This document shows positions 3,913 to 64,000 of a DNA stretch of 64,000 bases, piece by piece. The stretch lies in NCBI RefSeq assembly GCF_032191835.1, contig NC_083225.1, positions 149,978,001-150,042,000 on the forward strand, in the 5' to 3' direction. The notes beneath the pieces are model-generated. The model had not been told where the DNA came from and ran no database searches. It saw only the letters and a program-made list of their open reading frames with translations. The stretch is from Heteronotia binoei. Its lineage: Eukaryota. Positions within the stretch are counted from its first letter, which is position 1. Each line of letters starts with the position of its first letter. Both the position numbers and the translations under genes were made by a program.

Positions 3913-4677
3913 AATTTGGCCACTATACAATTCACCCTATTTTGTGTTCTATATATTAGAAAGTAATGTTTTAGACTTTTGTCATAGGTCAGGATCAAGC
4001 AGTGTTGAGGCCATAAAGGTAACATAAGTGGCCCTATAGCATTATCAAAAAAGGATTTAGGATGGTGGGGAGGCTGCATTTACTGGCACCATATATCTGA
4101 AGTCCTAAACTGTGGTTTATTGAGATTTTGCATAGATCTAATTTTGCTTTGCTAAATTCTACATAGCGAATTTGGTGCTACAAAGGGACTTCTACCCAGA
4201 TCTAAACACCAGATTGCCAAACTGCTTCCTAATGTAGAGTTGTAGCAGTTCACTACTGATTCAGGTGGTAAGGCATTCTCTTATCTCATAGTGTGATTAT
4301 GCTCGCTGTTCACCCACCTGCTGCAGGTAAACCCCTGTACTTAAGAAACTAAAGAGCAGGAGAACATATGACCCTGCAGTGGCCTCTACAGTGATGCTCT
4401 AGAAATTTCTGAACACCTCTGTGGTCTTTACCATACAGATTTGGAGAAATTCTTAGAGCATCACCTGGAAGTGACATTGCATCCTCCCCAGGCACCACCC
4501 TCATAATCTCCTAGCATTTGCTAAGGGATGCCAGCACCATAACTGTGATAAATCCTAAGAAGGTTATGTCTCCAGGATGCTCCTGCAATATTTGGGAAAT
4601 ATTTGCATCTTCCTGTGAACTAAATTGTAGAAGAAAATTGGTTTGTCTTACTTTATTTTTTCCTTTGCCATCTGCAG

Positions 4678-4840
4678 AAGTTGGTGCTAAGGCCATCTCA
4701 AAGAGGCATGTCCGTCGTGACTGGTTGATCTTGCCTGATGCAATTGCATTTTATGTATATAAGGCTGTGGACACAATGTCCCCTAAATCTGCAGAGGTGG
4801 TGGCAAAAGCTGTTCAGACTCCACTAATTCTTGATACAAG
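4678..4840 (+). CDS. APOV1: Apovitellenin-1 exon 3: (E)VGAKAISKRHVRRDWLILPDAIAFYVYKAVDTMSPKSAEVVAKAVQTPLILDT(R)
   Basis: Acceptor CCATCTGCAG|, donor ACAAG|GTATGA. RRDWLILPDAIAFYVYKAV..MSP aligns to chicken apo[30 protein letters not shown] (recalled). Confidence 0.95.
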
Positions 4841-5106
4841 GTATGATGACAAAAGGAGTTTCTTCCTTTGTGGGACCTCTGAAAGATCATGATCAGGGAA
4901 TACAGGGATAAGTGTAATTTGAGTTTCACAGTAGCAGTGTTGTATATTTGGGATGCCTTTCTTCAAGGTAATAAGGCCAAGTCTCTGTGCTGGATCTGAT
5001 TGTGTGAAAATGTTTCTGATAGCCTCTGCCTCCATCACTGTGCTTCCCTTGCCTGAAACTATTAGGAAAATGAGGTGCATAGCATTTTTGAGAGAAGGGC
5101 TGCATG

Positions 5107-13955: not shown

Positions 13956-15035
13956 TCAGAGCGACAGTGACCTCCTCCTCCTCCTAGATACATCTTCTCC
14001 ATGGACAGTCAAGGAGTAGCTGAGGCGTGTGTCTGTGGAATCGGAACTGGTGCCAAGGCTGCTGGCCTTCACGCATGGAAGCATGCATTGCATCATGGCC
14101 CTACGAATGTAGTCATCAAAAAAGTAGTAGATGAGAGGGTTTGTGCAGCTGTTGGCAAATGCAAAAGGGCCACTCAGTTCCATGCCCAGGTAGGCAACTT
14201 TGTAGGTAAGACAGAAAGGTGGCTTTAGTTCCTGAATGCCGGACACCACGGACAGAAATTTAAAAATGTTGTAAGGGGCCCAGGAGAACACAAAGGCAAT
14301 CACCACAATGAAGACAACTTTGATGGATTTCTTCAGCTTTTTGTTATGCTTTCCAGATTTCTTACAATGTATACAGAGTTTCCTGGTGATGGAGCAGTAA
14401 AACAGCAAGATGCTCAAGAGCGGTAAAAAGAAGGCCAAAATTATCTGCAAAAGTGACCCAATCTGATTAATGAACGTGGCTTTCTTGTCTTCACAGTATG
14501 TGTTGTCATTGTAGTTCCCCAGTTCTCTGGAGAGAAGGGTAGGCAATCCGAGCAGGCATGACAGAATCCAGACAGAGATGCAAAGGGTGACAGAATGGAG
14601 CTTTGTTCTGATCCTTCTGGCCACTGATGGATGCATGATGGCGAGATACCGGTCGGCACTCATACAAGTGAGAAGGAAAATACTGCAGTACATGTTGACT
14701 GAGATGATGTAGGAACTGCCTTTGCAGATGAACAAGCCTGACCTCCACAGCCCTGAGAATATCTCTTTGTCTACCCAAAAGGGCAAGGTGATAAGAAAAA
14801 CAAAATCAGAGGCTGCCAAATTGACAATGAAAATGTCAATCAGCCTCTGGATACGCCGCTTGAAGATCAGGGCTCCCATCAGAAGGGTGTTGCCAACAAT
14901 CCCTACCAGAAACACACTGGCATATAGAGCAGGCAGGAAAATATCTTTGTAAGGCAGCAGCACAGCTGGACAGTTGTTGTCTGCAGCCTCTGTGCTAAAA
15001 AAATCATCATAATAGTTGACAGTTGATCCTTCCAT
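13956..15035 (-). CDS. GPR15: G protein-coupled receptor 15 (class A chemoattractant receptor), single coding exon, 359 aa
   Basis: Seven TM segments with GN (TM1), NLAASD, ADRY, CWxP-like FSWAPY and NPLIY motifs. Tyr/acidic N-terminus NYYDDFF and C-terminal RRRRRSLSL. It lies next to CLDND1 as in human. The first ATG is at 15035; the ORF-track start at 15143 is a TTG. Confidence 0.97.
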   Translation of the reverse strand: MEGSTVNYYDDFFSTEAADNNCPAVLLPYKDIFLPALYASVFLVGIVGNTLLMGALIFKRRIQRLIDIFIVNLAASDFVFLITLPFWVDKEIFSGLWRSGLFICKGSSYIISVNMYCSIFLLTCMSADRYLAIMHPSVARRIRTKLHSVTLCISVWILSCLLGLPTLLSRELGNYNDNTYCEDKKATFINQIGSLLQIILAFFLPLLSILLFYCSITRKLCIHCKKSGKHNKKLKKSIKVVFIVVIAFVFSWAPYNIFKFLSVVSGIQELKPPFCLTYKVAYLGMELSGPFAFANSCTNPLIYYFFDDYIRRAMMQCMLPCVKASSLGTSSDSTDTRLSYSLTVHGEDVSRRRRRSLSL

Positions 15036-15774
15036 CTCTGAGTGATGCCTGTGAAGGAGTCTTCTGTATTGCTGTGTATTCTCAGTGCAACAGGCAACAG
15101 TTTTGATCTTTCCGTCCCCTTTTGATGACTTTACAGATGGCAAGGAAATCCTATAATGCAGAAGTCACAAACTGACCTCTCATTAGTACTGTAAATGCCT
15201 TGCAGAAAATGGGAGGGCCTGATTGCATTTGACCAATCTGCTTGTTTCATTCTAAATATACTTTAAATTTTATCTTCCTGCTGCATTTGACTATAAAAAA
15301 GCTTGGGGGTGATTTCCTTGAATTTTGAAAGATGAAGATAAGTTTCTTTGCAAATGAAATATTTCAAATGAGAAGATTTTGAGGTTACAGAGGTTGTAGA
15401 AAGCAGGAAGTTGTAAATTCTCCTTCTTTTGAGGAGTTATTGTCATTTAAATAACGGTTTACCTGTCCAGTATGTTGTTCTAAGACTGGGAGGAGGGTTG
15501 TTCCCACAGCTTGCAACTGGCATTTTACAGGGATTTTTTTTTTTAATCTAAAACAAGGCAGTTTTGTCTTGCCTCCTCAGCTTTGTTTGCAGTAAAAATT
15601 TATACTCTACATATATAGTTGTGGTACTGAGCTTCACTCTAGCCTTTAATATAACTTATTTTTATTGCTCTTAAAACAGTATCTTGCCTTTGAATTTTCT
15701 TGGAAGTTTGCTCTGTTTGCCCTATTATCATTTGCTTACCTTGTTTGTCTTTTTGTCAATCCATGCTATTTGTA

Positions 15775-26567: not shown

Positions 26568-26912
<345 letters not shown>

Positions 26913-28195
26913 TAAGTCACTCCTGTGTGTCGCATTAACCCGTTAGGTGCCATGTTGGTTTAACATGTTTAAGCTGCACATGCAAGCCAATGATCCTCAA
27001 CAGCAGTCCAGTTTTTCTTTGTACCCTGTGATTGTAATCAATTGGGTTACTGTGGGAGTATGGAATTGTCCCTAGAGATGCACAGCCATTATTTCTGTCA
27101 CATTTCCAGACCTCCCCACATTGACTTAAACTAGTTTGTAGAATCATTTGTTTCCTGTTTTATTCTTCAGCCACTGGAGCTAAATTCAACTGCAGATATT
27201 CTAGTACAAAAGAAGTTGGGGTGGGGGACTTTACACACCTCTTCTCTTCTTTTGACTGAAATGCAGAGAAATGTGGAAGTTTAAAATGCAAATATGGAAG
27301 GTGCAATTTATTCCTCCTGATGCAGTCAAATTTTAGTCAACTACAGCAAAAAAGATTTATTTTCTAAGCTCTGTTTTTGCATCTGGCTGATGGAGTCCAT
27401 GAGGGAAATGTTTTGTACCTCTGGTTCTGGAGGAGTTCTCATACTATGGAGCAAGTGCAGTGCAATCCTATGCAAAGTTACTTCGTTGGTTCAAATGTGA
27501 GATAGCCTAGGTTTGCACTGTTGGACTCCAGACAGCTTTCCATCTAAGTTGTACAAGCCATTTGCATTGACTTCTACTCCTGTATTTAAATTGACTTTTT
27601 AAAAAGCGGTGAAATTAGGGTGTCTTCTGCCTTTGCAGCTGGCTGATGGTGTCCATAATGTGTTTTCCGCCTCTAGTTACAGAGCAGTTTTCATATGCCA
27701 CAGAACAAAAACATCTTTATCCTGCCGTTCCACCAAGAAACTGAGGCTAGCATACTTTCTAATAAAGATTCTGCCTCACCATATCTGGTTATTTTTGAAT
27801 ATTGTGAGGAGGCACAATAAATATTCTTCATGGTGGGAAGAAAAAACAACCGCACAGTAGGTGGGGAGTAGATTTCCCCCACAAAGAGTTTTAAACTTCT
27901 CCTTTTCGCACTAAATATACTTTGCTTAATTTCAGCAAACTTCCTCTTGCAAATCTCTTTCTGACAGGTTCGATGAACACCAAGCATGGGTGTCAAGCAT
28001 TTTTATTTCATATTTGACATTGTTAAATGGACTAGTTTATATTTGAATTATTCAAACATATGTATTTTGCCCAGCTCTGCCCTATATCTTAACTATAGAT
28101 CAAGAGGGCTTGGACTATTGTCAAGCAGAAGGCAGAAAGCCACTTTCCAGGTAATCTGGTTATGAATAATGATAGTAAAACACATAAAACCCTAA

Positions 28196-28333
<138 letters not shown>

Positions 28334-28465
28334 TAGGATTTTTTTTTCCTTTAGTGGACAAAAAGTGGTGTTGGGAATGCAGCTTTATAAAGCCATTTAC
28401 AGAACTGTGCAATATTATTTTTGTACTTAGCATAGCTGAAAAGCTACAGTTCATGGGCTGTATGT

Positions 28466-28715
28466 GCCAGTTTGGTGTAGTGGTTAAGTGCGTGGACTTT
28501 GGGGGAAATGGGTTTGATTCCCCATTCCTCCATTTGCAGCTGCTGAAATGGCCTTGTGTTAGCCATAGCTCTTGAGAGCTGTCCTTGAAAGGTTAGCTTC
28601 TGTGAGAGCTCTCTTAGCCCCACCTACCTCACAGGGTGTCTGTTGTGTGTGGGGGGGAGGCAAAAGAATATTGTAAGCCACTCTGAGATTCAGAGTGAAG
28701 GGCGGGATATAAATC
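28466..28715 (+). mobile_element. Squam3-type tRNA SINE
   Basis: GCCAGTTTGGTGTAGTGGTTAAG...GGGTTTGATTCCCC...CCCCACCTACCTCACAGGGTGTCTGTTGT...GGGATATAAATC. Confidence 0.85.
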
Positions 28716-29025
28716 TTGTATGGCAAATAAGTTCTTGGAACTTCAGTTGAGTCTCCCACTGTTGTCATGGAGGCTGTGGCTCTTTCACACTGAGGCAGCA
28801 AGAGTTCCATAAAATATGGCATGGGAATACACTGTTCTCGGTATTTCCCTGCCCACCAGCTGTGGTCTTCAGCTTGCCCTCTTCTAGGTGTTCTCTCACT
28901 GCCTGGCATCATGCTTCATCTGAAATCACTCCCATTTTAAGAAACAGCTTCCCTGAGGGGCACTTTCAGTAGGTGATGTGTGGCTGTTTTATTCTTCATA
29001 GCTTTTAATACAGTTTAAATTGGAA

Positions 29026-29290
29026 ACAGAGTGGTAAAGCTGCAGTACTGCAGTCTAAGCTTTCTGTTCGATGCTGGTGGAAGCTGGGTTTTCAGGTAGC
29101 CAGCACGAGGTTGAATCAGCCTTCCGAGGTCGGTAAAATGAGTACCCAACTTGCTGGGGGGAAAGTGTAGATGACTGGGGAAGGCAATGGCAAACCACCC
29201 CGTAAAAAGTCTGCCGTGAAAATGTGATGCGACATCACCCCAGAGTCGGAAACAGCTGGTGCTTGCACAGGGGACTACTTTTACTTTTTT
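29026..29290 (+). mobile_element. Sauria SINE (Squam1)
   Basis: CAGAGTGGTAAAGCTGCAGTACTGCAG head, GGGGAAGGCAATGGCAAACCACCCC RTE-derived part, and GGGGACTACTTTTACTTT tail. Confidence 0.9.
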
Positions 29291-29371
29291 AAAAATTGGA
29301 GGTGTTTTATGATATTAAGAGTGAGTTGTGCTTTTATTGTTAAATTGGATGCTTTTAATTCTGTATTGTAA

Positions 29372-29629
<258 letters not shown>

Positions 29630-29689
29630 TGATCCCTTTGCTTTGTAATGAAATATAGGTGTCTTAATAATGGGGAGCCAAGAATCTGA

Positions 29690-29950
<261 letters not shown>

Positions 29951-50953: not shown

Positions 50954-50993
50954 ATGGAGCCCTGGCTGGTGATGCTGCTCTTTTTACAGGCAG
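50954..50993 (+). CDS. PLA2G10: Group X-like secreted phospholipase A2, exon 1: signal peptide MEPWLVMLLFLQA
   Basis: ATG plus hydrophobic stretch and a phase-1 donor CAG|GTGAGT. It joins 59930 in frame to give MEPWLVMLLFLQAVWNGVLG. Linkage across the 8.9-kb intron is inferred. Confidence 0.72.
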
Positions 50994-52144
50994 GTGAGTA
51001 TCAATCAAACGATGTCGCTGCTGACCTCTAAAACATCTACACTTCTGTGCTTTGTCCTCTCTTCCTCACAAGTTTCATTTTTGAATCTGACTCTATTATA
51101 CCCAGGCAAGGCAAGCCATATTTAAACAGGTGAGTATGCTGAACTCCCCCCCCCCCCTCTCTATATTTGACATCTTAGAACAATCCTGGGTGTCACTGGC
51201 TGACTTTCATAACAACTGCATTGTACAAGCACGTAAACATTGAAGAAATCTTCCATTGTGCTTGTACATTCTAAAACGTCCTAAGTGACGTAAAGTCTCA
51301 TCAAGTAAAGTGTTGTTTAAGTTAAGTAGGGCTTGTTCCAGGACATTACAGTGACATTCAGGCTGTTATAAAATACTTAACAGCTGCTTCAAAGGAATTA
51401 CCGTAGATCAGGAGAATGGCTTGGCCTTGGGTACTCTAGCATATTGTATAGAAAGTTTCCTTCTACTGTCAGATCATTGGTCTGTCTAGCTCAGAGTATT
51501 CTATCCTCTTAGCAAGAAAAAGAGGTCTCCAGGGTCTCAGACACCACTTTCTTCTGAGATCCTTTACCTAGCTGAACTGATGCCCTTGTGCAGGCAAAGC
51601 GCATACTCCTTCTGAGCCACAGCCCCTCTCTCATATTGGAATGACCTCTTAAAAAGAATAATTGACTGGTTTTCTTCTTTTTGGAAATATTATTTTGCCT
51701 CAACCCCATCTTTTAAAGTAAGTAATTTTTACATACTCCTGAGGTAATGGTAGGAGGGAAGGGGAGAAAGATTGCAGAGAAAGACAATCGCTCTTTTAAT
51801 AGTGCCATAGGAGCTGCCTCCCATAACAGTAGTTCCCCAAGATGGTGTGTGGATAGCAGAGCTACATTCTGAGAAACAGTCACTGAAAGATATTTTAATT
51901 GGTTGGAGATTCCTATATTCTGCCAATGTAAACTCCACAATGCCAGGAAAGCTGAGGTCATCCTGTATAACTCACCTGAAATGCCATAATATTTTAAGAA
52001 GTGCTAATTTAGCAACCTATGTAGCTAAACACGAAGGCCTGTATTTAAAAAAAAATCCTCTACAAATTTCAGGTTTTCTTAGCAGAATTGTCTTCAGCCA
52101 TGCAACATATAAAGAATACTCTAATGGGGTAGGCTAATCTGATG

Positions 52145-53262
52145 AGTGACAGTGTGGTGTAGAGTTTCCAGCTAGGATCTGAGAGACATGGATACAAATC
52201 TCCCCTGCTGTGAAGCTCCCTAGGTGACTCTGAACTAATCATATTCTCTCAGTCTAACCTACTAAACAGCATGATCGTTTGGTTGAGAAACAGAGAACCA
52301 TGTAGGTTGCCTTGAGCTCCTTGAAAGAAGGGCAGAATAAAGGTGAACTAAATGGATATCTTACTCTGTGAACAAATTCAGTTAATAATCAACACATCTT
52401 TGAAAACCAAAAAGGCAAGCTATCAGGCTGCAATCCTGGGGCACTTTCCTGGAAGTAAGCCCTATGGAACATTATGGACACTTCCCAGTAGATCTGTTTA
52501 GTGTTGCTCCCCTAGTCCACTGCCACAAAATTAAAAGAGAGTCTTGTGACAGCTTAAAGATGAACTGATTTATCATGCCATAAGTGTTTTTGGATTAGAG
52601 CTTATTTATCTATTTATACTCCACATTCCTTCGCAAAGGGGACCCAAAATGATGTGCTCCACATATTTATTGTATCTTCATAACAACCCTGTGAGAGGTT
52701 TGGCTAAGACAGAATGCTTGACCCAAGGTTACCCAGTGAGCTTCTATGGCATAAGGGGGATTTGAACCCCAAGCTTCCATTGTCTGTGGAATGGTTGCAG
52801 AAATAAGTCTGAAAACATGATAGCAATATATCCTATGATAGCAATACATCCTATAGTGATTACAAATATGAACCAAGGTAAGTGAAAATTCAAGAATCTC
52901 ATTATTATTAAATCAGCGATCATAATCTGAGGCAATCATGTTCCCTTCCTTCAAAGCACACACACATTTTATATGAGCAGTTTCAGGGTACATGTGTCAT
53001 AACAGGAAAGTTATTTACCTACTGTACGCTACTTATTTGGATATTTATACCCTGCTTTTATCCCCAGAGGAGCCAAAATGGCTTTCAACACCGTTCCTCC
53101 TCTCCAGTTGATTCTCACAACAGCCACCCTGTAAGGAAGGTTAGGCTGAGAGAGAATGACTGGCCCAAGGTCGGCCAGTAGCTTCAATGGCAGAGTGGGG
53201 ATTCACACCCAAGCCTCCCAGATCCTTGTCTGACAGTCTAAACACTACACCATACTGGCTCT
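52145..53262. mobile_element. Cluster of three Squam3/MIR-like SINE copies (about 52145-52340 +, 52615-52790 -, 53030-53262 -)
   Basis: Shared GACTGGCCCAAGGT / CCCTGTGAGAGGTTTGGCT core motifs and tRNA-like heads. Confidence 0.7.
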
Positions 53263-53480
53263 TTACTTCATTTGGTACATGAAGTGCATTCACAGTAGTT
53301 GCTCATCGTTTACCTTCCACCCTCTCCTGTGCCTATATATATAGTTAGGGCCAAATGCGATAAAATGCCTGCAACGTTTTCATGTATCGAAGATAAATTT
53401 AATGGTGACCATTTATACCAACAGCAATAGTGGTAATGCACTTACTAGACTTCCCAAGCCGATTTAACATCTGTAGTAAT

Positions 53481-53622
53481 AAGGAAGGAAAGGTCCCCTG
53501 TGCAAGCACCAGTCTTTTCTGACTCTGGGGTGACGTTGCTTTCACAACATTTTCACGGCAGACTTTTTATGGGGTGGTTTGCCATTGCCTTCCCCAGTCA
53601 TCTACACTTTCCCCCAGCAAGC
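53481..53622 (-). mobile_element. Sauria SINE 3' part
   Basis: Reverse complement of the 29.15-29.29 kb sequence (GGTCCCCTGTGCAAGCACCAG...GCCATTGCCTTCCCCAGTCATC). Confidence 0.9.
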
Positions 53623-55407
53623 AATAAAGGAATCCATAATTGTGACTGAGTCCTACTTTACAAAGCAGTTAGTTTTGCATATCGTTATCAGTTCATATTC
53701 AATGTGCCAAAAGATTCCTTTCTATTTATTGTGTTGAAAGAGCATTCCAGCTGAAATGCAGTCACTTTTATTCATTTATTTACTTCATTCATTGTCTACC
53801 TTTCTCGCTGAGACTCAAGGAGGATTGCAAAATAAACAGTTCACTCAGACAGCATAAGACATCCAATAAACAATGCAAACAGGACTAGAAAGAGAGAATT
53901 TTAAAAAACAAAACTGTTAGGAAACTATCTAAGTCTAAGGCATGACTTACCATAACCAATGTAGAGAGTGGGTAGGTACAAGTGCAGTAAAAGCAAGATT
54001 TATACAATAAATCCTAGTCCATTCTAAAACATCTTCCTAGACTGTTGCATTATATTGCAATTCTAATCCCTTTATAAAAACGATGTCTGGAACATTCTTG
54101 CTGATGGTCCATTTATGCTGAGTTCAAAGATGGATTCCTGCATACCAGGTATAATCCCAAAATATGAAGAGATGTTGTGGGATTTAAAAACAAAATTCTC
54201 CCACCTGCCAATCTGAGTTGCAGAAGTTGTGGCTCCTTTCATGTTGATGGCAGGCAGGAGTTCACAGCCCTTCAAGGCTGGCACAGCAAGTCCTTTCAGA
54301 AGGAATTGTCTCTTTGTAAAAGAGTAAGTGAGGAAATGTGATTCATACTTTTTCCTCTGAACTTTTCTAGACTGAGAGGTTTAGTTTGCAATGTGTAATC
54401 ATCGTGAACATACTCAGATTATGTGTGTTGTCAATGAAATGCTTAACTTTTGCCCACCTTGAATATTAATATGCTTTTCAGGACTGACTGCTAAAGGAAG
54501 GCATTCCATTATACTCTTTAAAAAGGAGGTGGGGGAAAAAGAAAGGATTTATCTGTTCATATAACATCTGAACCTCCCCTCACCCCAATTCCTTTTGAGT
54601 AATTTATTAACTATATCTCAGTCATGCTTTAATTGAATTGAGGTCCTCAGATGCTGACTGGCTTTGTAATATTAACATACCTGACAGTTATGATCCAGAT
54701 ACAGCTGCCATTGTTTCTTTCTGCCTTTCCTAACAATGAAGCTATTGTGCGTCTTAGGTTCCAAAAATTAGAGCTGAATACTGCGTTGTAGAAAGAAGCT
54801 GCAACATTTTCAGGAATGCATATTTGATCTGGACAGAATGTTCTGAAGAGTGGCAGTAGGTAGAAGTGCCCTATCTTTGGTTTGAGGGTTATGTTTGTTT
54901 TTGAAACAATGCTGCTGTGCAAGGCAGTGTTTAAAATTTTTCCAAAATCTTCCTGTTTGCAGTGCACAGTTACTACTATTTTTGAAATCTGTATAAATCT
55001 TGAATGCCTTAACTAGATACATTCGTGCTGTTTAAATCTTTATGTGTTGGATCAATAGAGGGGATTTGACTGAAGATTTTGTTTAATTAACACTTAAATT
55101 GTTTTAAAAATACAAAATGAAAGGGAAAACTGCGATAGAGCTTATAGTTTTACTGAAAAGTGTTTTGAACAGTTGCTTGTTCAACCATGTGCCAATATCC
55201 ACATTCATTTAAGCACTGTGCATTGATGAATGAAACAGCTTTTGCAGGCAGGGAAACAAGCTCAGACTGCCCATGAACAGTGACTTAATTGAATGAGCTG
55301 GATTTGTTTCTTATACACAGATCCTCATCATATTATACAGTTCTGCTGTAGTGATCTGAAATATGCAGGTCTGAACTTAGTTATTTGTTGCATCCTTTAA
55401 ACATTTT

Positions 55408-55430
55408 CTCTAACCCTAACCCTAACCTAA
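55408..55430. repeat. Short telomeric-type (TAACCC)n tract at the 5' junction of the CR1
   Basis: CTCTAACCCTAACCCTAACCTAA; the minus strand reads TTAGGTTAGGGTTAGGGTTAGAG. Confidence 0.75.
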
Positions 55431-56934
55431 AAATCTGTAATCTTTCATTGAAATCTGCCTCCGTTCCTGAGGACTGGAAGGTAGCAAATGTCACCCCCAT
55501 CTTTAAAAAGGGTTCCAGAGGAGATCCGGGAAATTACAGGCCAGTCAGTCTGACTTCAATACCGGAAAAGTTGGTAGAAAGCATTATCAAGGACAGAATG
55601 AGTAGGCACATTGATGAACACGGGTTATTGAGGAAGACTCAGCATGGGTTCTGTAAGGGAAGATCTTGCCTCACTAACCTGTTACATTTATTTGAGGGGA
55701 TGAACAAACATGTGGACAAAGGAGACCCGATAGATGTTGTTTACCTTGACTTCCAGAAAGCTTTTCATAAAATTCCTCATCAAAGGCTCCTTAGAAAGCT
55801 TGAGAGTCATGGAGTAAAAGGACAGGTCCTCTTGTGGATCAAAAACTGGCTGAGTAATAGGAAGCAGAGAGTGAGTATACATGGGCAGTCTTCGCAGTGG
55901 AGGACAGTAAGCAGTGCGGTGCCGCAGGGCTCGGTACTGGGTCCCATGCTCTTTAACTTGTTCATAAATGATTTAGAGTTGGGAGTGAGCAGTGAAGTGG
56001 CCAAGTTTGCGGATGACACTAAATTCTTCAGGGTGGTGAGAACCAGAGAGGATTGTGAGGAACTCCAAAGGGATCTGTTGAGGCTGGGTGAGTGGGCGTC
56101 AACGTGGCAGATGCGGTTCAATGTGGCCAAGTGCAAAGTAATGCACATTGGGGCCAAGAATCCCAGCTACAAATACAAGTTGATGGGGTGTGAACTGGCA
56201 GAGACTGACTAAGAGAGAGATCTTGGGGTCGTGGTAGATAACTCACTGAAAATGTCAAGACAGTGTGCGTTTGCAATAAAAAAGGCCAACGCCATGCTGG
56301 GAATTATTAGGAAGGGAATTGAAAACAAATCAGCATCATAATGCCCCTGTATAAATCAATGGTGCGGTCTCATTTGGAGTACTGTGTGCAGTTCTGGTCG
56401 CTGCACCTCAAAAAGGATATTATAGCATTGGAGAAAGTCCAGAAAAGGGCAACTAGAATGATTAAAGGGCTGGAACACTTTCCCTATGAAGAAAGGTTGA
56501 AACGCTTGGGACTCTCTAGCTTGGAGAAACGTCGACTGCGGGGTGACATGATAGAGGTTTACAGGATAATGCATGGGATGGAGAAAGTAGAGAAAGAGGT
56601 ACTTTTCTCCCTTTCTCACAATACAAGAACTCGTGGGCATTCGATGAAATTGCTGAGCAGACAGGTTAAAACGGATAAAAGGAAGTACTTCTTCACCCAA
56701 AGGGTGATTAACATGTGGAATTCACTGCCACAGGAGGTGGTGGCGGCCACAAGCATGGCCACCTTCAAGAGGGGTTTAGATAAAAATATGGAGCAGAGGT
56801 CCATCAGTGGCTATTAGCCACAGTGTGTGTATGTGTGTGTGTGTGTATATATAAATTTTTTGGCCACTGTGTGACACAGAGTGTTGGACTGGATGGGCCA
56901 TTGGCCTGATCCAACATGGCTTCTCTTATGTTCT
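55425..56934 (+). mobile_element. 5'-truncated CR1 LINE (RT domain, C-terminus, 3'UTR), disabled by a stop at 56210-56212 and a frameshift near 56335
   Basis: PEDWKVANVTPIFKKG..DPGNYRPVSLTS, QHGF.KGRSCLTNL, YLDFQKAF, VPQGSVLGP, KFADDTK. Tail CTCTTATGTTCT. Confidence 0.98.
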
Positions 56935-58110
56935 CCACCAGAACATCAGACTTATTCATTTGCAAGTGTTCTGAAAGAATTTTATCCAGGGTCCTTTTCC
57001 TGGAAAAAGAGGTGCTGGAACTCTCAAGAGGGAAATGAAAGAGAAACATACAGAAGTCCCTCATGAACTTTGAAACATTTTTTGAGAATTTTGTTTCCAC
57101 AAAAAGGTTCTGGAACTCTGTTCTGCCACGTTCCCCAGGGGGGAAAAAGCCATGGTTTTAACTATCTACCTCATACTGCTTCTTAATTTATTAGTTCTAA
57201 ACAGATTACTAAAATATACAAAAAGCTAGACCCCATTTGAATGGCTGCAAAAATCTTAACGCAGACGCATAAAGTTTCATAGCTAAAAGAGGGATAGATC
57301 TGCTATTATCTTCTAATAAAAGAGAAAAGAGAGAAAATAATTAGAATTAGAAAAGAGAGAAAAGAAAGAATCCCTACATACAGAAGCGATTTCCATCCGT
57401 AGAGCAGGACTTTTCTGCCTCCCCTTTGTGCTGCAGTCCCAAATATCTCCAGAAATGCTGTACCTCACCAATACCTTGGGGGCAGTTGTAGGTTTTGCAT
57501 TGTGGGAAGGAGGGGGGAGGAATAGCTGACAATTCCCCTTCTGTCTTTGTAGATCCTTTGTGGGATCCAGTTTATCAGAAATAATACACGTTCCTTGGAA
57601 CTATTGCTTTAAGAAGCAGTGAGACAAGTACATGCATATATACTGGAAACATCATATGGGGCACTGTGAGCTCCCTTGCATATTACACACACCAGTGGTC
57701 ATCACCCAAAAATGGTTAGAGGGGAAGGATGATGGTGTCTTCATGATGGTGCCTTCTGTGCACAGGCTTCTTGTTGCCTGCAGCTTTCTTAGGACACAGT
57801 CTTAGGAAATGTAAACCACTTTCATGGAAATTCTTGTGTACTATGCTGCTGCTACATTTAAAAATTGTGGATTGTGGTGGATGGATATTTAAATCTCATT
57901 TTTTAAAAAGTGCTACCTACCTCCTTCCCTTACCCCTACTGCCTCAGATCTCTTACCTGATTACTCCTTGGTGGTTAGGTATTCTTCAGAAGGGCAGAAA
58001 CAGAACCCTTTCTTCTTCAGCCACTGTCTGCAGCGTTCCTACTCAGGATTGAAGGTTCCCCAGATAATCTATATTGTCTAATACCAGTGTATCTTTTCCT
58101 CAGTCCCAGC

Positions 58111-58266
58111 CAGGCCTCGGATTCAGCGGGAGCTCACAGCAGCACAGCTCCTGAACCTTTCTGACAGTTCCACCTCCTCCTTCCTACCTTATCCATTGAA
58201 TAATAGGTGCAGCTGCATAACAATCCTGGATGAGCTCCACCACTTATTTTTCTACAAAACGACCCC
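58111..58266 (+). mobile_element. hAT MITE, copy A
   Basis: CAGGCCTCGGATTCAG...CTACAAAACGACCCC; TSD-like GTCCCAGC / TCCCAGC. Confidence 0.85.
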
Positions 58267-58578
58267 TCCCAGCACTTATGACCCAGTAGAGAGGGGCAGT
58301 TCCAAGCCACTATATGAGAGATTGGAATTTAAGGATAATTCTTTTGGCAGACATCCAAGCTTTAAAGAGTTTTTTCACCCAAGGGGGTTAATGCAGTTAA
58401 CCACAGTGTGAATGTTAAACCTGCCTTGGCCAGAATGTTTATTTGCAGTACAAATACTTCTCCACATTCTCTCTAATTTTAACAATATGTCCATTTAACA
58501 AATACAGCAGGCAGGGTTTAATTAAGATTTGCTGAGGCCTTAATCTATGTCAAGTTTTGTAAACCCCATAGAATTAAC

Positions 58579-58737
58579 CAGGAGTTGTTTTGTAGAAAAA
58601 TAGGTGGTGGAGCTCATCCAGGAATTGTTATGCAGCTGCACCTACTATTCAATGGACAAGGTGGGAAGGAGGAGGTGGAACTGTCAGAAAGGTTCAGGAG
58701 CTGTGCTCCTGTGAGCTCCCACTGAATCCAAGGCCTG
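58579..58737 (-). mobile_element. hAT MITE, copy B (inverted relative to A)
   Basis: CAGGAGTTGTTTTGTAG...GAATCCAAGGCCTG; TSD GAATTAAC / AAATTAAC. Confidence 0.88.
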
Positions 58738-58902
58738 AAATTAACATTAAAATGGTAATGGTCATTTTAGTAATTTTCATCCTTTTTTGTTGTTTAGGAC
58801 TCTCATAATCTGAGAACTTCAGCTGTAGGATTTTATTAGTTTTATATGATTGTATTCATTAGTCATTGTTGTCTATCACCCACAGCCCAGCGCTAGCCAG
58901 GA

Positions 58903-59300
58903 CAGAGTTGCCAATCCTCAGTTGAGGGCAGAGGATCCCCCAGTTTGGAGGCCCTCCCCTTGCTTCAGGGGCATCAGAAAGCAGGGGAAGGAGAGGGAAA
59001 TATCTGTTGGGCCCTCCATTATTCCCTATAGAGACCAATTCCCAGAGGGTATAATGGTGAATTGATCAGTGGGTATCTAGGGCTTGCTTTTTGAGGTAGA
59101 GGCACCAAATTTGCAGCATAGCATCCAGTGCACCTCCTCAAAACACCCTCCAAGTTTCAAAAAGAATGGACCAGGGGATCCAATTCTATGAGCCGCAAAA
59201 TAAAATGCCCCTATCTTTCATTATTTGCAATGGAGGGAAGACATTTAAAAGAGGTGCAGCCCCTTTAAATGTGATGGCCAGAACTCCCTTCAGAGTTCTA
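58903..59300. mobile_element. Non-autonomous DNA transposon fragment (GGGTTGCCA-terminus family)
   Basis: GAGTTGCCAATCCTCAGTTG start and TTTTTGAGGTAGAGGCACCAAATTTGCAGCATAGC block. Confidence 0.6.
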
Positions 59301-59929
59301 AAATAAATAAATTGTTTATTTAGCTTGTGTGCATGTGCTTGCACTTGTGCAGTCTTCTGAAAGCAGGAGAGAAGTAGGTACAAGAATGCTATCAGAGTTT
59401 GAGCTTTTGCTACATTTTAATGTTCAATTGAGGCTGATTGGGTAACAAGCCAAACCTTGGCAAACCACACGCCATCTTCTTGCTTATTTGCTAATGCATG
59501 GTGTCCGCTGACACCTGTCAACACCTTTCCTGGTACCCCCCAAGTGTTCTTAGAAAGTAGGCAGGGCCAAGTGGGTTCTTTGCCCAGCAAGATCACTAGA
59601 CATCTGATTGCACATCTTAAACAGTTTCTGGCTGCTCCCTGACATTTTTAGGTTCCTGTGACAGCCATTTTGTGGTTGCAACTACTACTCTGTGTCAGAA
59701 TTCAAAAGGTACCCCTATGCTAGTTTTTATGCATATTTTGGAAGCATTTGAAACTGTGGAGAAATATCAGATGCTGCGGACATAGATGCTTTAAGCAGAT
59801 CATGTAATCTTATGGGTTGTACTGAATTTCTGAAGGGCCACACATTCAGAAGGAAGTGGGAAAATGTAGAGATGGACTCAAATGATTTCAGTCAAATACA
59901 TTAAAAACCATATTCCCTTGCCTTTGCAG

Positions 59930-60095
59930 TTTGGAATGGCGTCCTTGGGAAAACCCATTCTTTGCACAAAAGAGGAATCCTTGAGTTAGCAGGAACCATA
60001 AAATGTAGCACAGGACGAATTCCTTTGGCATATCTGGGTTATGGATGCTACTGTGGCCTGGGAGGACATGGCTGGCCTAAAGATAAAACAGACTG
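59930..60095 (+). CDS. PLA2G10: Group X-like sPLA2 exon 2: (V)WNGVLGKTHSLHKR^GILELAGTIKCSTGRIPLAYLGYGCYCGLGGHGWPKDKTD(W)
   Basis: Acceptor CCTTTGCAG|, donor GACTG|GTAAGA. Dibasic propeptide site KR|GILELAG, Cys11 and Ca2+ loop YGCYCGLGG. Human group X reads RR|GILELAGTVGC...YGCFCGLGGHGQP. Confidence 0.95.
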
Positions 60096-60917
60096 GTAAG
60101 AACATCAGTGAATTCCCCAAGTGTGTGTCATGCTTGTCTTCCAGAAACAGAATTCCCTTTAAATGATGGCAGTTTTATCTAAAGAACAAGAGCAACCCTA
60201 TCAGCAATAGCCCAGCCAAGCAGCAAATGCACATAGTGGTGGGTAGCAAGAGGCAAGTGATGCAATAAGATTAGAACACAACCTGGCCTTTATTATGCTG
60301 GATAAAATTACTGTGTTGCTAAATTGAAGATGAAGTAGGAAACAAGGGATGCTGCTGTGCCCTCATTTAACTAACTTTAAAATCACTGGAGCTTTTCTAA
60401 GGATAAATGTGATTTAACTCTCATTTCACCGAGTGACACATCAGGGTCAGTCTTGCTGGTGCGCTTAGTTCTGTTTGCACAAAAGTTTTTCATAACCTGT
60501 CTGATCCTTCAATGCAAACCTAGGAGTACTGAGAAGGACATACAGTTTCTTGTACACTGTGCCAGTGATACACCTTCTGTGCTGTGTGTATCTTGCAAGC
60601 CTTTCTTGTTGCTGATTGTGCTTAAGATCTAAAAGAAAACAGGCAGAAGCCTTCTTGGGCTGCTTGCACTGTTGTACTGTCATATCTGACATAATCTTGT
60701 ATACTTTAGCTGAAGTAGGATGAATAACAGTATGATGAGTAGTTTCTCTAGACTAATGTGGCAGATGGCACACCTCTGTACTAGGTGCAGGAACAAGATA
60801 TGGTGTCAACATTACAATCACAAGTTTTCTCTGTAGGTGGCACAAGATCCAGGACACATACACACCTGAGGGTTCTCAAAAATGCCATATTTGCTAATGA
60901 ATTAGGTTCTCATGGAT

Positions 60918-62095
60918 ATTGCCCCCCCATTCGGAATAAAGAGACTGACAACAATGTGGGATAAAGGGCCACTTTATTTAAATAACGGCAATGGGAATAA
61001 ACATGGGGCCAGGTTGAGCCAGGGGTCACTTAAACGCAGACCACCTCCCCAACCTGAAACTGGGCGAGCCACAGGCCCCGGGAGTGAGCCGACTCAACGG
61101 CTCAAACCCGGCCGGCCAGGCACTAGATCCAGCTCACTGAGGTCCACCCTCCCCCGTGCCGTGCAGCCTGGGCTGTGGACCACTCCCTAGAGACTGGATC
61201 ACCAGGCTCCCTGGAGCCAACCTTGTGCCGTGCAGCTTAGGTCCCCCAGGGGCGCCTTGCACCCCCAAAGGTGCATTGCCATGTGAGCTCACCAAATGCC
61301 CCCAAAAGAACATGTTCCCAATGGTAAAACCGCCAGTGACCAACTAAAAGCAGCACCGCCGTAGCCAATTGCCAGCGCACCATCTACAGTGTAAGGTAGG
61401 CGAAAACACTCCCAAGCCAGCCAATTTGCTTGAAAGCGAAAAATTCCTACCTGGCCCCACAATCGGCGACCAGCCTGTGCCTACACTGCATGACGGGCGG
61501 GCGGCTGGGCCGACAAGCCCTGAACCGACTGCACAGGGAGGAGAGGGGCCAGCCTACTTAAGGCTGCCCCACCCACCAGGCAGTCAGGGCAAACCAAGTC
61601 TCCCTCTCCTTCAGGGGAGGCAAAGAACGGCACCCATCCTAAGGCGGCCGATTGGCCGCCCGGCTGGGTGGTGCCGAATTGCCCCCCCATTCGGAATAAA
61701 GAGACCGACAACAATGTGGGATAAAGGGCCACTTTATTTAAATAACGGCAATGGGAATAAACATGGGGCCAGGTTGAGCCAGGGGTCACTTAAACGCAGA
61801 CCACCTCCCCAACCTGAAACTGGGCGAGCCACAGGCCCCGGGAGTGAGCCGACTCAACGGCTCAAACCCAGCCGGCCAGGCACTAGATCCAGCTCACTGA
61901 GGTCCACCCTCCCCCGTGCCGTGCAGCCTGGGCTGTGGACCACTCCCTAGAGACTGGATCACCAGGCTCCCTGGAGCCAACCTTGTGCCGTGCAGCTTAG
62001 GTCCCCCAGGGGCGCCTTGCACCCCCAAAGGTGCATTGCCATGTGAGCTCACCAAATGCCCCCAAAAGAACATGTTCCCAATGGTAAAACCGCCA
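60918..62095 (-). mobile_element. Probable DIRS/Ngaro-type (tyrosine-recombinase retrotransposon) terminal remnant: 418-bp direct repeats (60918-61335, 61678-62095) with a 342-bp spacer
   Basis: The repeats are seen directly (period 760, 2 mismatches, both CpG transitions). The segment is GC/CpG-rich, has AATAAA on the minus strand and shows no TSD. The family assignment is inference. Confidence 0.55.
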
Positions 62096-62279
62096 AGGAC
62101 AGCGCCAAGCCTCTGCTTAGGCCACTGACCCCCCACCGGAGAGAACATGTTCCAGCCGTGAGAGACTGAGACCCCCAGTGTGGGCAGGAGTACCCCAATC
62201 CCAGGACCCAGCTCTCCACTCCGCTCATCTGGTCGGGGTGTGTGGGTGTGTGTGTGTGTACTTACAACAAAAAATCTGA

Positions 62280-62580
62280 CATGCCTACATGACTTCAGTG
62301 TAACCTGGAAGCGATGTAGGCATATCAGGGATATCAGAGTGACACTTTGGTTTGGGGAAAAAAACTCTATAGTAGAAGCTAATTCTACCATAGAGTTTTT
62401 GTCCAAAAACAGAATGTTGCTCTGGCATCCCTGATGTGCCGGTCACTTCTGGGTCACACCGGAAGTCACATGACCACATTGCTGAAACATTGTGTGAGAC
62501 TGTGCTCCCAGTAAGCCCACTCCCCATCCTCTGCTGGCTCCCTGGATGGACCCAGGAACCCTAACTGCCCCCTAAGCAAT
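62280..62580. mobile_element. Non-autonomous DNA transposon fragment with central hairpin AAAAACTCTATAGTAGAA-gct-aTTCTACCATAGAGTTTTT
   Basis: Hairpin at 62359-62400; end GGAACCCTA. Confidence 0.6.
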
Positions 62581-62986
62581 CCTAGAGCTCTGATTGTGGT
62601 CTATCAGAAATGTTTCTGGGAATAGACACATGCATTAACACAAAGATATGGCAGGATAAAAAGTAATAGTAAAGTATTAATTTTCACATGTTTTAAAAAA
62701 ACTGTACAATCCTTAAAATACATTGTGGAGTAACCACAGATGGCAATCCATATGCATATTACTGTTGCTTGATGCATTTATTTAATGCCTTATTCCAGAC
62801 AACTAATTACTTGTAACAACATTAAAAATTTCATGGGCTTTCACAGTGTCAATACAAACTCTTGCCAGAGTGCTGGAAAATTTTCTGTATAGAATGCTGT
62901 ACCTGTTATTCTTTTGGATGACCTTGTGCCAGTAGGGCCCTTAGAAGTGCTTGCAAATATAACAGATCTATCTGTGTTGCCTAAAG

Positions 62987-63093
62987 GTGCTGCCATGGTC
63001 ATGACTGCTGCTATGGCTTTGCAGAAGAGCAAGGATGCAATCCCAAGACAACTAGGTACAGATGGAGCTGTAGGCGCAACACTGTGGTATGTG
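62987..63093 (+). CDS. PLA2G10: Group X-like sPLA2 exon 3 (catalytic): (W)CCHGHDCCYGFAEEQGCNPKTTRYRWSCRRNTVVC(G); the last exon lies beyond the window
   Basis: Acceptor CCTAAAG|, donor TGTG|GTAAGG, 107 nt. The His48-Asp49 dyad in CCHGHDCC is intact. Confidence 0.95.
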
Positions 63094-63904
63094 GTAAGGA
63101 ACCAACTTTGATTTCGTTGTAGAGTTTAGATGTATATTATTCACAATATCATGGGAGGCATAAATTTAGGGAAGCCATTTTAGAGGTGGAGGAGGCAAAG
63201 CAATTTCAGAAGGAAGACTCATAGCAAGCATCAAGGGGCTTGTTCTTGCACATACTTCCATTTAAATGGTGAAAAAAATATGCCTTTACAAAAGCATTTG
63301 GTGTGGTTATTTTATACCTATATACCAGAATAATTGCAATTCCAGAGGGTAGATTTAATTCCCAGGTTTGCATATATAGCATTCTATATAGGTATAGAAT
63401 GCAGGTATAGCATTCGAGACAGAGATTGGGACCATGGTGAATGGGAAGAGGAGGCCTATGCCTTCCGCTCCATACCATTTTCTCTACCTGAAATGACCCT
63501 AGGAACCTGCAATTGGCCTTGCTGAAAAAGCTAAGCAAAGAGTGGTTCTTCAGGGCTATTTTGCTTATTTATTTATTATTTCAATTTATATACTGCTCCT
63601 CCCCCACAAAGTGGGACTTGCCAGTTCACAGGAATATTAAAAAAAGAGATAACAAATATAGTTAAACAGTATAAAATACAAAGTATAAAGAGCAAACATT
63701 TTGGTTTGGGAAAAAACGACAAGACAGAGGACATAGGCCCCCACACCAAGATCCTGGTCTAAATAAGGCCCTTGCACACCAGGGAGTTAAATTCTAAGCA
63801 CATCTGATCCACAGGACCCATGGAATAACATGAGGACTCGCAATATGTGAATTGTCCCTTAAATGGTATTCTTGATTCCCAAATTCCAGGATAAATCTAT
63901 AATG

Positions 63905-63985
63905 CAAAAAATGAGAAAATGAGAATGCAGAATGAGAAAATGGAATGCAGAAATGAGAAAATGGAATGCAGTAAATGAAAGCAGT
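63905..63985 (+). repeat. Short degenerate minisatellite (AATGAGAAAATGGAATGCAG-like units)
   Basis: About three imperfect units, read directly. Confidence 0.7.
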
Positions 63986-64000
63986 GATGTACCTTGACTG

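Follow-up and report, generated by a model that had tools for sequence, protein, structure and literature searches.

A second group X-type secreted phospholipase A2 gene in the gecko Heteronotia binoei, with a probable origin by duplication in early sauropsids

The question raised by this locus is why a gene for a group X-type secreted phospholipase A2 (sPLA2) should lie downstream of a claudin-domain gene in the gecko Heteronotia binoei, when in the human gene order PLA2G10 lies beside BFAR and PARN. The gene begins in a window of 64,000 nucleotides (NCBI RefSeq assembly GCF_032191835.1, contig NC_083225.1, positions 149,978,001 to 150,042,000 of the forward strand; positions given below without a prefix are those of this window), for which a preliminary description had offered two explanations, a second group X paralogue retained in sauropsids and lost in mammals, or a lineage-specific relocation. 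We refer here to the window gene and its clade as Xb, and to the BFAR/PARN-linked group X gene found on C20 of the same genome and its clade as Xa. On balance, we favour the reading that Xb is a functional second group X sPLA2 which arose, in all likelihood along the stem of the sauropsids, when PLA2G10 was duplicated at the DNA level, introns included, to another chromosome. Enzymes of the group X family are secreted, made as pre-pro-enzymes and activated by cleavage after the propeptide, and hydrolyse the sn-2 ester of phospholipids through a Ca2+/His48/Asp99 site, freeing fatty acids and lysolipids.

The window gene is real and complete, with four exons on the + strand and 167 codons in a complete open frame. 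Exon 1 (50954..50993, +, 40 nt) provides the ATG and a hydrophobic leader that is predicted to form most of the signal peptide (assigned by eye, the leader matching that of orthologue models), and ends in a phase-1 donor; its junction with exon 2 agrees with the orthologue models P0001, P0006 and P0017. Exon 2 (59930..60095, +, 166 nt) holds the end of the putative signal peptide, a propeptide ending in KR, the mature start GILELAG, Cys11 and the Ca2+ loop YCGLGG, and matches PF00068 with an E value of 4.6e-10 (Pfam). Exon 3 (62987..63093, +, 107 nt) carries the CCxxHDCCY active-site helix with His48, Asp49 and Tyr52, followed by a beta-wing with the conserved Trp (we take the numbering of these residues and of Asp99 to follow the standard sPLA2 scheme). 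These three exons have GT-AG ends and join in frame (phases 1, 2, 1). With a profile built from 21 homologues, exon 2 scored 98.3 bits and exon 3 scored 55.4 bits, against a top score of 11.4 from 30 shuffled windows. The leader, KR propeptide end, GILELAG, Cys11 and Ca2+ loop listed in the preliminary description are all present where it had placed them, and the last exon, which it had left to be sought downstream, was located by a Pfam search of the genome and is intact. Exon 4 begins 351 bases beyond the window end (G000:C3:150042351-150042541, +, or 64351-64541 in continued window numbering) after an intron of 1,257 bases in total (63094..64000 and on beyond the window end, +), and is open from an AG acceptor to a TAA stop. 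It encodes the Asp99 helix, the C-terminal extension cysteine and a 17-residue tail with one extra Cys; the "His-Asp dyad" previously read in exon 3 consists of His48 and the Ca2+ ligand Asp49, and the dyad partner Asp99 is found here in exon 4.

The mature Xb protein has 139 residues, with 16 cysteines at group X positions (11, 25, 27, 42, 43, 48, 49, 58, 69, 76, 83, 88, 90, 97, 115 and 122 in mature numbering, the positions being identical in the C20 copy) and the extra Cys at 133 in the tail. It carries Cys11, as in group I, together with the C-terminal extension Cys typical of group II, the disulfide pairing being a prediction, and has an intact Ca2+ loop (Y-C-G-x-G), His48, Asp49, Tyr52 and Asp99. 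Among the homologues listed, the nearest named protein comes from another gecko, Euleptes (a gene model with 89% identity), and this orthologue was used as a stand-in for Xb in comparisons with PDB sequences and folds. Human group X was the top match (E 1.3e-51, gap-free), with group IIE at 4e-33 and the best venom enzyme at 2e-27, and the predicted structure of the orthologue (mean predicted local distance difference test score, pLDDT, of 72) had 1LE6 as its first fold match. The pancreatic loop of group IB is absent from Xb, as the orthologue aligns gap-free with human group X, whereas the group IB copies on C11 of this genome have a longer segment. Xb shares with human group X (PLA2G10; PDB 1LE6 and 6G5J) an apparent pre-pro layout, a dibasic propeptide end without a P4 Arg, the 16 cysteines, the Ca2+ loop, the His/Asp/Tyr residues and the conserved Trp, the match having been made through the 89%-identical orthologue, but differs in lying outside the BFAR/PARN neighbourhood, in its identity of about 52% to mammalian rows, in a more basic core (+3) and in the 17-residue tail with its extra Cys. 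A 41-row tree in which the outgroups were group IB, group II and the divergent C21 family placed Xb inside the group X clade (97/97), and in our trees it falls outside the IB and II rows.

A search of the genome with PF00068 and the Euleptes protein, the counts from which are lower bounds, turned up one further intron-containing gene of group X type (G000 C20:38.07-38.09 Mb). It too is intact (153 codons) and agrees with Xb in intron phases (1, 2, 1) and exon-3 length (107 nt), from which it follows that the duplication was at the DNA level and not a retrocopy. The two proteins are 56% identical in the mature part, and Xa and Xb are equally distant from mammals (median 52% identity each). The C20 gene stands tail-to-tail with a BFAR-like gene having a RING exon (Pfam) and an exon matching PDB 1v85 (SAM), a structure which we take to be mouse BFAR, and a PARN exon lies 86 kb away, so that the neighbourhood fits the location of human PLA2G10. 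The BFAR-like gene and PARN are separated by a CLC-channel gene, and PARN is on the opposite strand, inverted with respect to the human order. The position of a one-to-one PLA2G10 orthologue, as judged by BFAR/PARN synteny, is occupied by the C20 gene and not by Xb. The preliminary description had suggested looking for a further group X gene near BFAR and NTAN1, and the C20 gene is such a gene in respect of BFAR; NTAN1 is on C20 too, at a distance of 19 Mb from that gene, and was dropped as an uninformative synteny marker. The sauropsid PLA2G10 proper, represented by the C20 gene and chicken NP_001171686, is therefore like Xb in exon phases, exon-3 length, cysteine positions and membership of the group X clade, but unlike it in clade, chromosome and much of its sequence; in Xa the propeptide site is R-X-R-R, the CC pair is followed by Phe and the Ca2+ loop is preceded by Arg, where Xb has KR or TR, His and Gly. 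The region around the C20 gene (L041, L047, L050; G000:C20:38.06-38.19 Mb) also holds an alpha-galactosidase-like gene immediately upstream of it.

How widely the two genes are distributed was judged from three homologue searches listing 171 different proteins (two of the searches list the best 120 of 211 and the best 120 of 351). For the first tree 10 of 133 proteins were dropped as truncated or aberrant and birds and fish were thinned to leave 72 of 129 rows, while the rows for later trees were chosen by hand (39, 64, 49 and 41 rows), the 49-row tree being the best sampled for the relationship between Xa, Xb and mammals; LG+G4 was used for all trees. Every tree splits sauropsid group X into two clades, and in the 49-row tree the Xb clade (99/91) contains the window gene, squamates, turtles and birds, and the Xa clade (99/95) the C20 gene, squamates, tuatara, alligator, turtles and birds. 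As each clade holds squamates, turtles and birds, the duplication predates the split between turtles, birds and lizards, and a squamate-only duplication joining the squamate rows of Xa and Xb is rejected by the approximately unbiased (AU) test (p-AU 0.0005, 49-row tree). Both genes are present in chicken (Xb, XP_024999459, on a 196-Mb contig and Xa, NP_001171686, on a 15-Mb contig, the latter being tabulated on chromosome 14 in PMC4314415) and in turtles, where Xb models are mostly on contigs of 335-380 Mb and Xa on contigs of about 91 Mb; these contig sizes are what supports a putative linkage of bird and turtle Xb to CLDND1. A second group X clade was not seen for frogs, salamanders, caecilians, coelacanth, ray-finned fish or mammals in the 64-row tree or among the homologues listed. 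The two well-supported clades, the separate C20 copy and the pair of genes in chicken support the suggestion, made in the preliminary description, that Xb is a second group X paralogue kept across sauropsids.

The relationship of this duplication to the mammals is harder to fix. In the best-sampled tree Xa and Xb are sisters (77/88, 49 rows), so a mammalian loss is not required, and by parsimony the duplication would probably have taken place on the sauropsid stem; mammals probably never had Xb. The derived Xa residues are rare in mammals, with Phe after the CC pair in none of 14 and Arg before the Ca2+ loop in two of 14. Several observations nevertheless tell against this dating. The sister grouping of Xa and Xb is not starred, the smaller tree of 39 rows groups mammals with Xa (53/84), and the AU test on the 49-row tree keeps both mammals with Xa (p-AU 0.33) and mammals with Xb (0.075). 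An Asp following the final Cys closes the sequence in 12/14 mammals, which in this are nearer to squamate and crocodilian Xa than to Xb, and crocodilians and tuatara gave Xa only among the homologues listed, with no dedicated Xb search made there. With outgroups the long mammalian branch is pulled to the root (72-row and 41-row trees), and the trees and AU tests do not settle the dating relative to mammals because some 130 columns are too few and the mammalian branch is long. The loss in mammals that had been proposed for this locus is consequently not borne out, as the best-sampled tree favours a sauropsid-stem duplication while the AU test keeps all three arrangements.

The most substantial alternative, to which we give an appreciable but clearly lesser probability, is an older duplication on the amniote stem or earlier, involving the same gene and function, with Xb subsequently lost in mammals, possibly at the rearrangement by CLDND1. 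The mammals-with-Xa grouping seen in one tree and retained by the AU test in the other speaks for such a history, as do the acidic C-terminal ending common to mammals and part of Xa and the states that Xb retains in common with coelacanth and caecilians. Xb also lies at a departure from the human gene order, with an immunoglobulin (Ig) V-set gene and a DHHC gene downstream, no olfactory-receptor motif in 160 kb and RIOX2 16 Mb away, although such a synteny break fits either gain or loss. Set against this, the richer tree prefers Xa with Xb, no second copy was found among 19 amphibian, nine fish or coelacanth and 14 mammalian rows, the mammals are mostly without the derived Xa residues, and at least one extra loss is needed. 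A bolder version, in which Xb is a paralogue older than the split between mammals and reptiles that disappeared from mammals at a chromosome breakpoint and acts as a separately activated (non-furin, extracellular) lipid-releasing enzyme of the gut or oviduct, we regard as unlikely; if true, single-gene models based on mouse sPLA2-X would miss half of the ancestral amniote system.

Returning to a duplication on the sauropsid stem, the retention of both copies may be connected with how they are activated. We compared cleavage sites in rows chosen by hand from the representatives of clusters at 90% identity, among which some bird rows were put in a clade by name and contig size and not by tree. 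The propeptide site R-X-K/R-R is found in 28/30 Xa rows, 0/33 Xb rows and 0/14 mammals. The Xb propeptide ends in a dibasic KR in the window gene and in all 13 squamate rows, whereas bird and turtle Xb have a single basic residue (TR) before the mature start (20/20, with a dibasic end in 0/20) and an acidic-to-neutral core, and mammalian group X is dibasic without the P4 Arg (14/14). The mature core of the window gene has a net charge of +3 and that of the C20 copy one of -2; more generally, the core is basic in squamate Xb (median +2.5, n=12) and mostly acidic in squamate Xa (median -2, n=11). This charge difference was rejected as a clade mark as it holds in squamates only, bird Xb being acidic (median -2, n=17), and to that extent it also counts against our explanation.

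According to the scheme that we propose, PLA2G10 would have been copied together with its introns to a different chromosome to give Xa and Xb. Xb is predicted to be secreted as a pro-enzyme, with cutting of the propeptide leading to Ca2+-dependent sn-2 hydrolysis, and while Xa has a full furin site (R-X-R-R), the KR or TR of Xb could allow later or extracellular activation, for example in the gut or reproductive mucosa. Both copies might then have been kept because of differing activation and tissue use, an explanation which on present sequences has about an even chance of being correct; the clade-wide cleavage-site difference makes it a simple and testable idea. A review of the mammalian enzymes (PMC7603386) describes group X as matured by furin-type convertases, as having the highest phosphatidylcholine activity among mammalian sPLA2s, and as acting in testis, gut and airway. 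The squamate KR need not imply another protease, because mammalian group X is without the P4 Arg and yet furin-matured (PMC7603386), which is a further point against the scheme. One RNA run (share 0.06) compared with exons 2-4 and flank gave mostly repeat-derived contigs and no splice junction among the rows listed, which we weighed neither way, and also one 263-nt contig with four differences in 246 just past the Xb stop codon.

It is highly improbable that Xb is instead a decaying or silent duplicate, or a recruit related to venom. The 17th and probably unpaired Cys in the Xb tail, which the Euleptes orthologue is without, could be taken as a sign of this, but the frame is open, the splice sites are canonical and the terminal branch is short (about 0.05 in the trees), His48-Asp49-Tyr52 is kept in 32/33 Xb rows (the lone exception being a truncated turtle model), and the copy is common to non-venomous birds and turtles. 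Snake venom group I and II PLA2s have the fold and catalytic machinery in common with Xb, but their sequence match is far weaker, their cysteine sets differ from that of Xb, and snakes own Xa and Xb genes which are separate from the venom enzymes in the trees. Nothing tying Xb to venom was found in the sequence comparison, trees or literature search, and the special relevance to venom once suggested for this locus is not borne out for a gene that chickens and turtles also have and that is far nearer human group X (1e-51) than venom PLA2. Finally, that Xb is the sole true PLA2G10 of its lineage, relocated, is hardly credible, as even though its N-terminus and CCHGHD motif are nearer the human protein than those of the C20 copy and an older Anolis annotation calls the Xb copy 'group 10 secretory phospholipase A2', the lineage-specific relocation is refuted by the intact C20 gene beside BFAR-like and PARN genes in the same genome, which clusters with chicken NP_001171686, and Xa and Xb are equally far from mammals.

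Xb orthologues are already present as automatic annotations in many bird and reptile genomes, where they are called 'phospholipase A2-like' or 'group 10 secretory phospholipase A2-like', and the older Anolis model is simply called group 10. The chicken 'phospholipase A2' XP_024999459 / E1C202_CHICK belongs to the Xb clade (99/95, 41-row tree) and is likely to be the Xb orthologue. The symbol PLA2G10L presumably denotes the Xb clade gene. PMC8082553 gives PLA2G10L among the genes differentially expressed in hen sperm-storage tissue and has the symbol in pathway lists, and no match to the symbol was found in the supplements of that paper. No published treatment of the Xa/Xb paralogy was found in a literature search whose coverage mostly excluded subscription journals; a term search of the main text of a Pla2g2 study (bioRxiv 583344) found no mention of group X, and in PMC5721910 and PMC5799185 PLA2G10 is simply listed. 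Xb is known, then, as automatic models whose origin and role seem to be unstudied. What is gained here is a correction of orthology. Two group X genes occur in birds, turtles, lizards and snakes, and Xa can be confused with Xb in comparative and transcriptome work where an Xb copy bears the plain group 10 name, as in at least one older annotation (Anolis). Neither the chemistry of Xb nor the system is new, and it is common for paralogues to be missing from mammals.

Other PLA2 genes were met in the same searches. A single-exon secreted PLA2 on C21 (L034:4299-4850 (-); G000:C21:173.414 Mb) has 16 cysteines ordered much as in group X and a propeptide whose end is dibasic, and forms its own clade (100/98, 41-row tree) with sawshark, paddlefish, coelacanth, frog, caecilian and turtle proteins named by similarity only. 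No mammal or bird was present in the 10 clusters looked up of 150 matches listed, no dedicated search having been made, and a literature search for 'type IE' gave no match. The C21 gene may represent an ancient group of sPLA2s that has no name as yet and that mammals lack, and a clade reaching from shark to gecko may merit more attention. Two group IB-type genes lie on opposite strands 3 Mb apart (L029 and L031; G000:C11:51.23 and 54.29 Mb), one of which is also on the small contig C393 (L004), probably a duplicate assembly, and at least five group II/V-type genes are clustered at G000:C18:18.78-18.85 Mb (L005-L008, L010). Two candidates for group X, P0163 and P0166, were rejected; these are turtle and garter snake models that fuse two tandem group II genes and are probably annotation artefacts.

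Within the window, the upstream neighbour of Xb is the claudin-domain gene (approximate coding-exon span 26574..29935, +; PF13903, below the curated cut-off) that we read as CLDND1, a name resting on the human sequence. Farther upstream is a single-exon G-protein-coupled receptor gene (13959..15164, -; PF00001), presumably GPR15, the name being taken from the preliminary description, and near it an apovitellenin I-like exon (4515-4889, +; PF05418, E 1e-22). Apovitellenin I is an egg-yolk lipoprotein family described from birds, and here it is found in a lizard. CPOX had been named together with GPR15 and CLDND1, but it is not adjacent here, being at C3:148.46 Mb some 1.5 Mb upstream of Xb, and a CPOX motif search of the window gave no match. 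Directly downstream and facing Xb is a single V-set Ig membrane-protein gene (L022:1262-1798 (-); G000:C3:150.047-150.052 Mb), with the DHHC gene about 130 kb farther on, and five olfactory-receptor motifs, used as a pattern test only, had no match in the window or the 160 kb downstream. The Xb introns hold two passengers, a decayed long interspersed nuclear element (LINE) with reverse transcriptase homology in intron 1 (55355..56814, +; PF00078, E 5e-35) and, in intron 2, a direct duplication of about 424 bp whose two copies are nearly identical (60919..62102, no strand assigned; the copies start at 60919 and 61679, 760 bp apart). Downstream of the locus there are long retrotransposon gag/pol-like reading frames, gypsy-like and DIRS-like by eye (L054 and L057; G000:C3:150.10-150.14 Mb).

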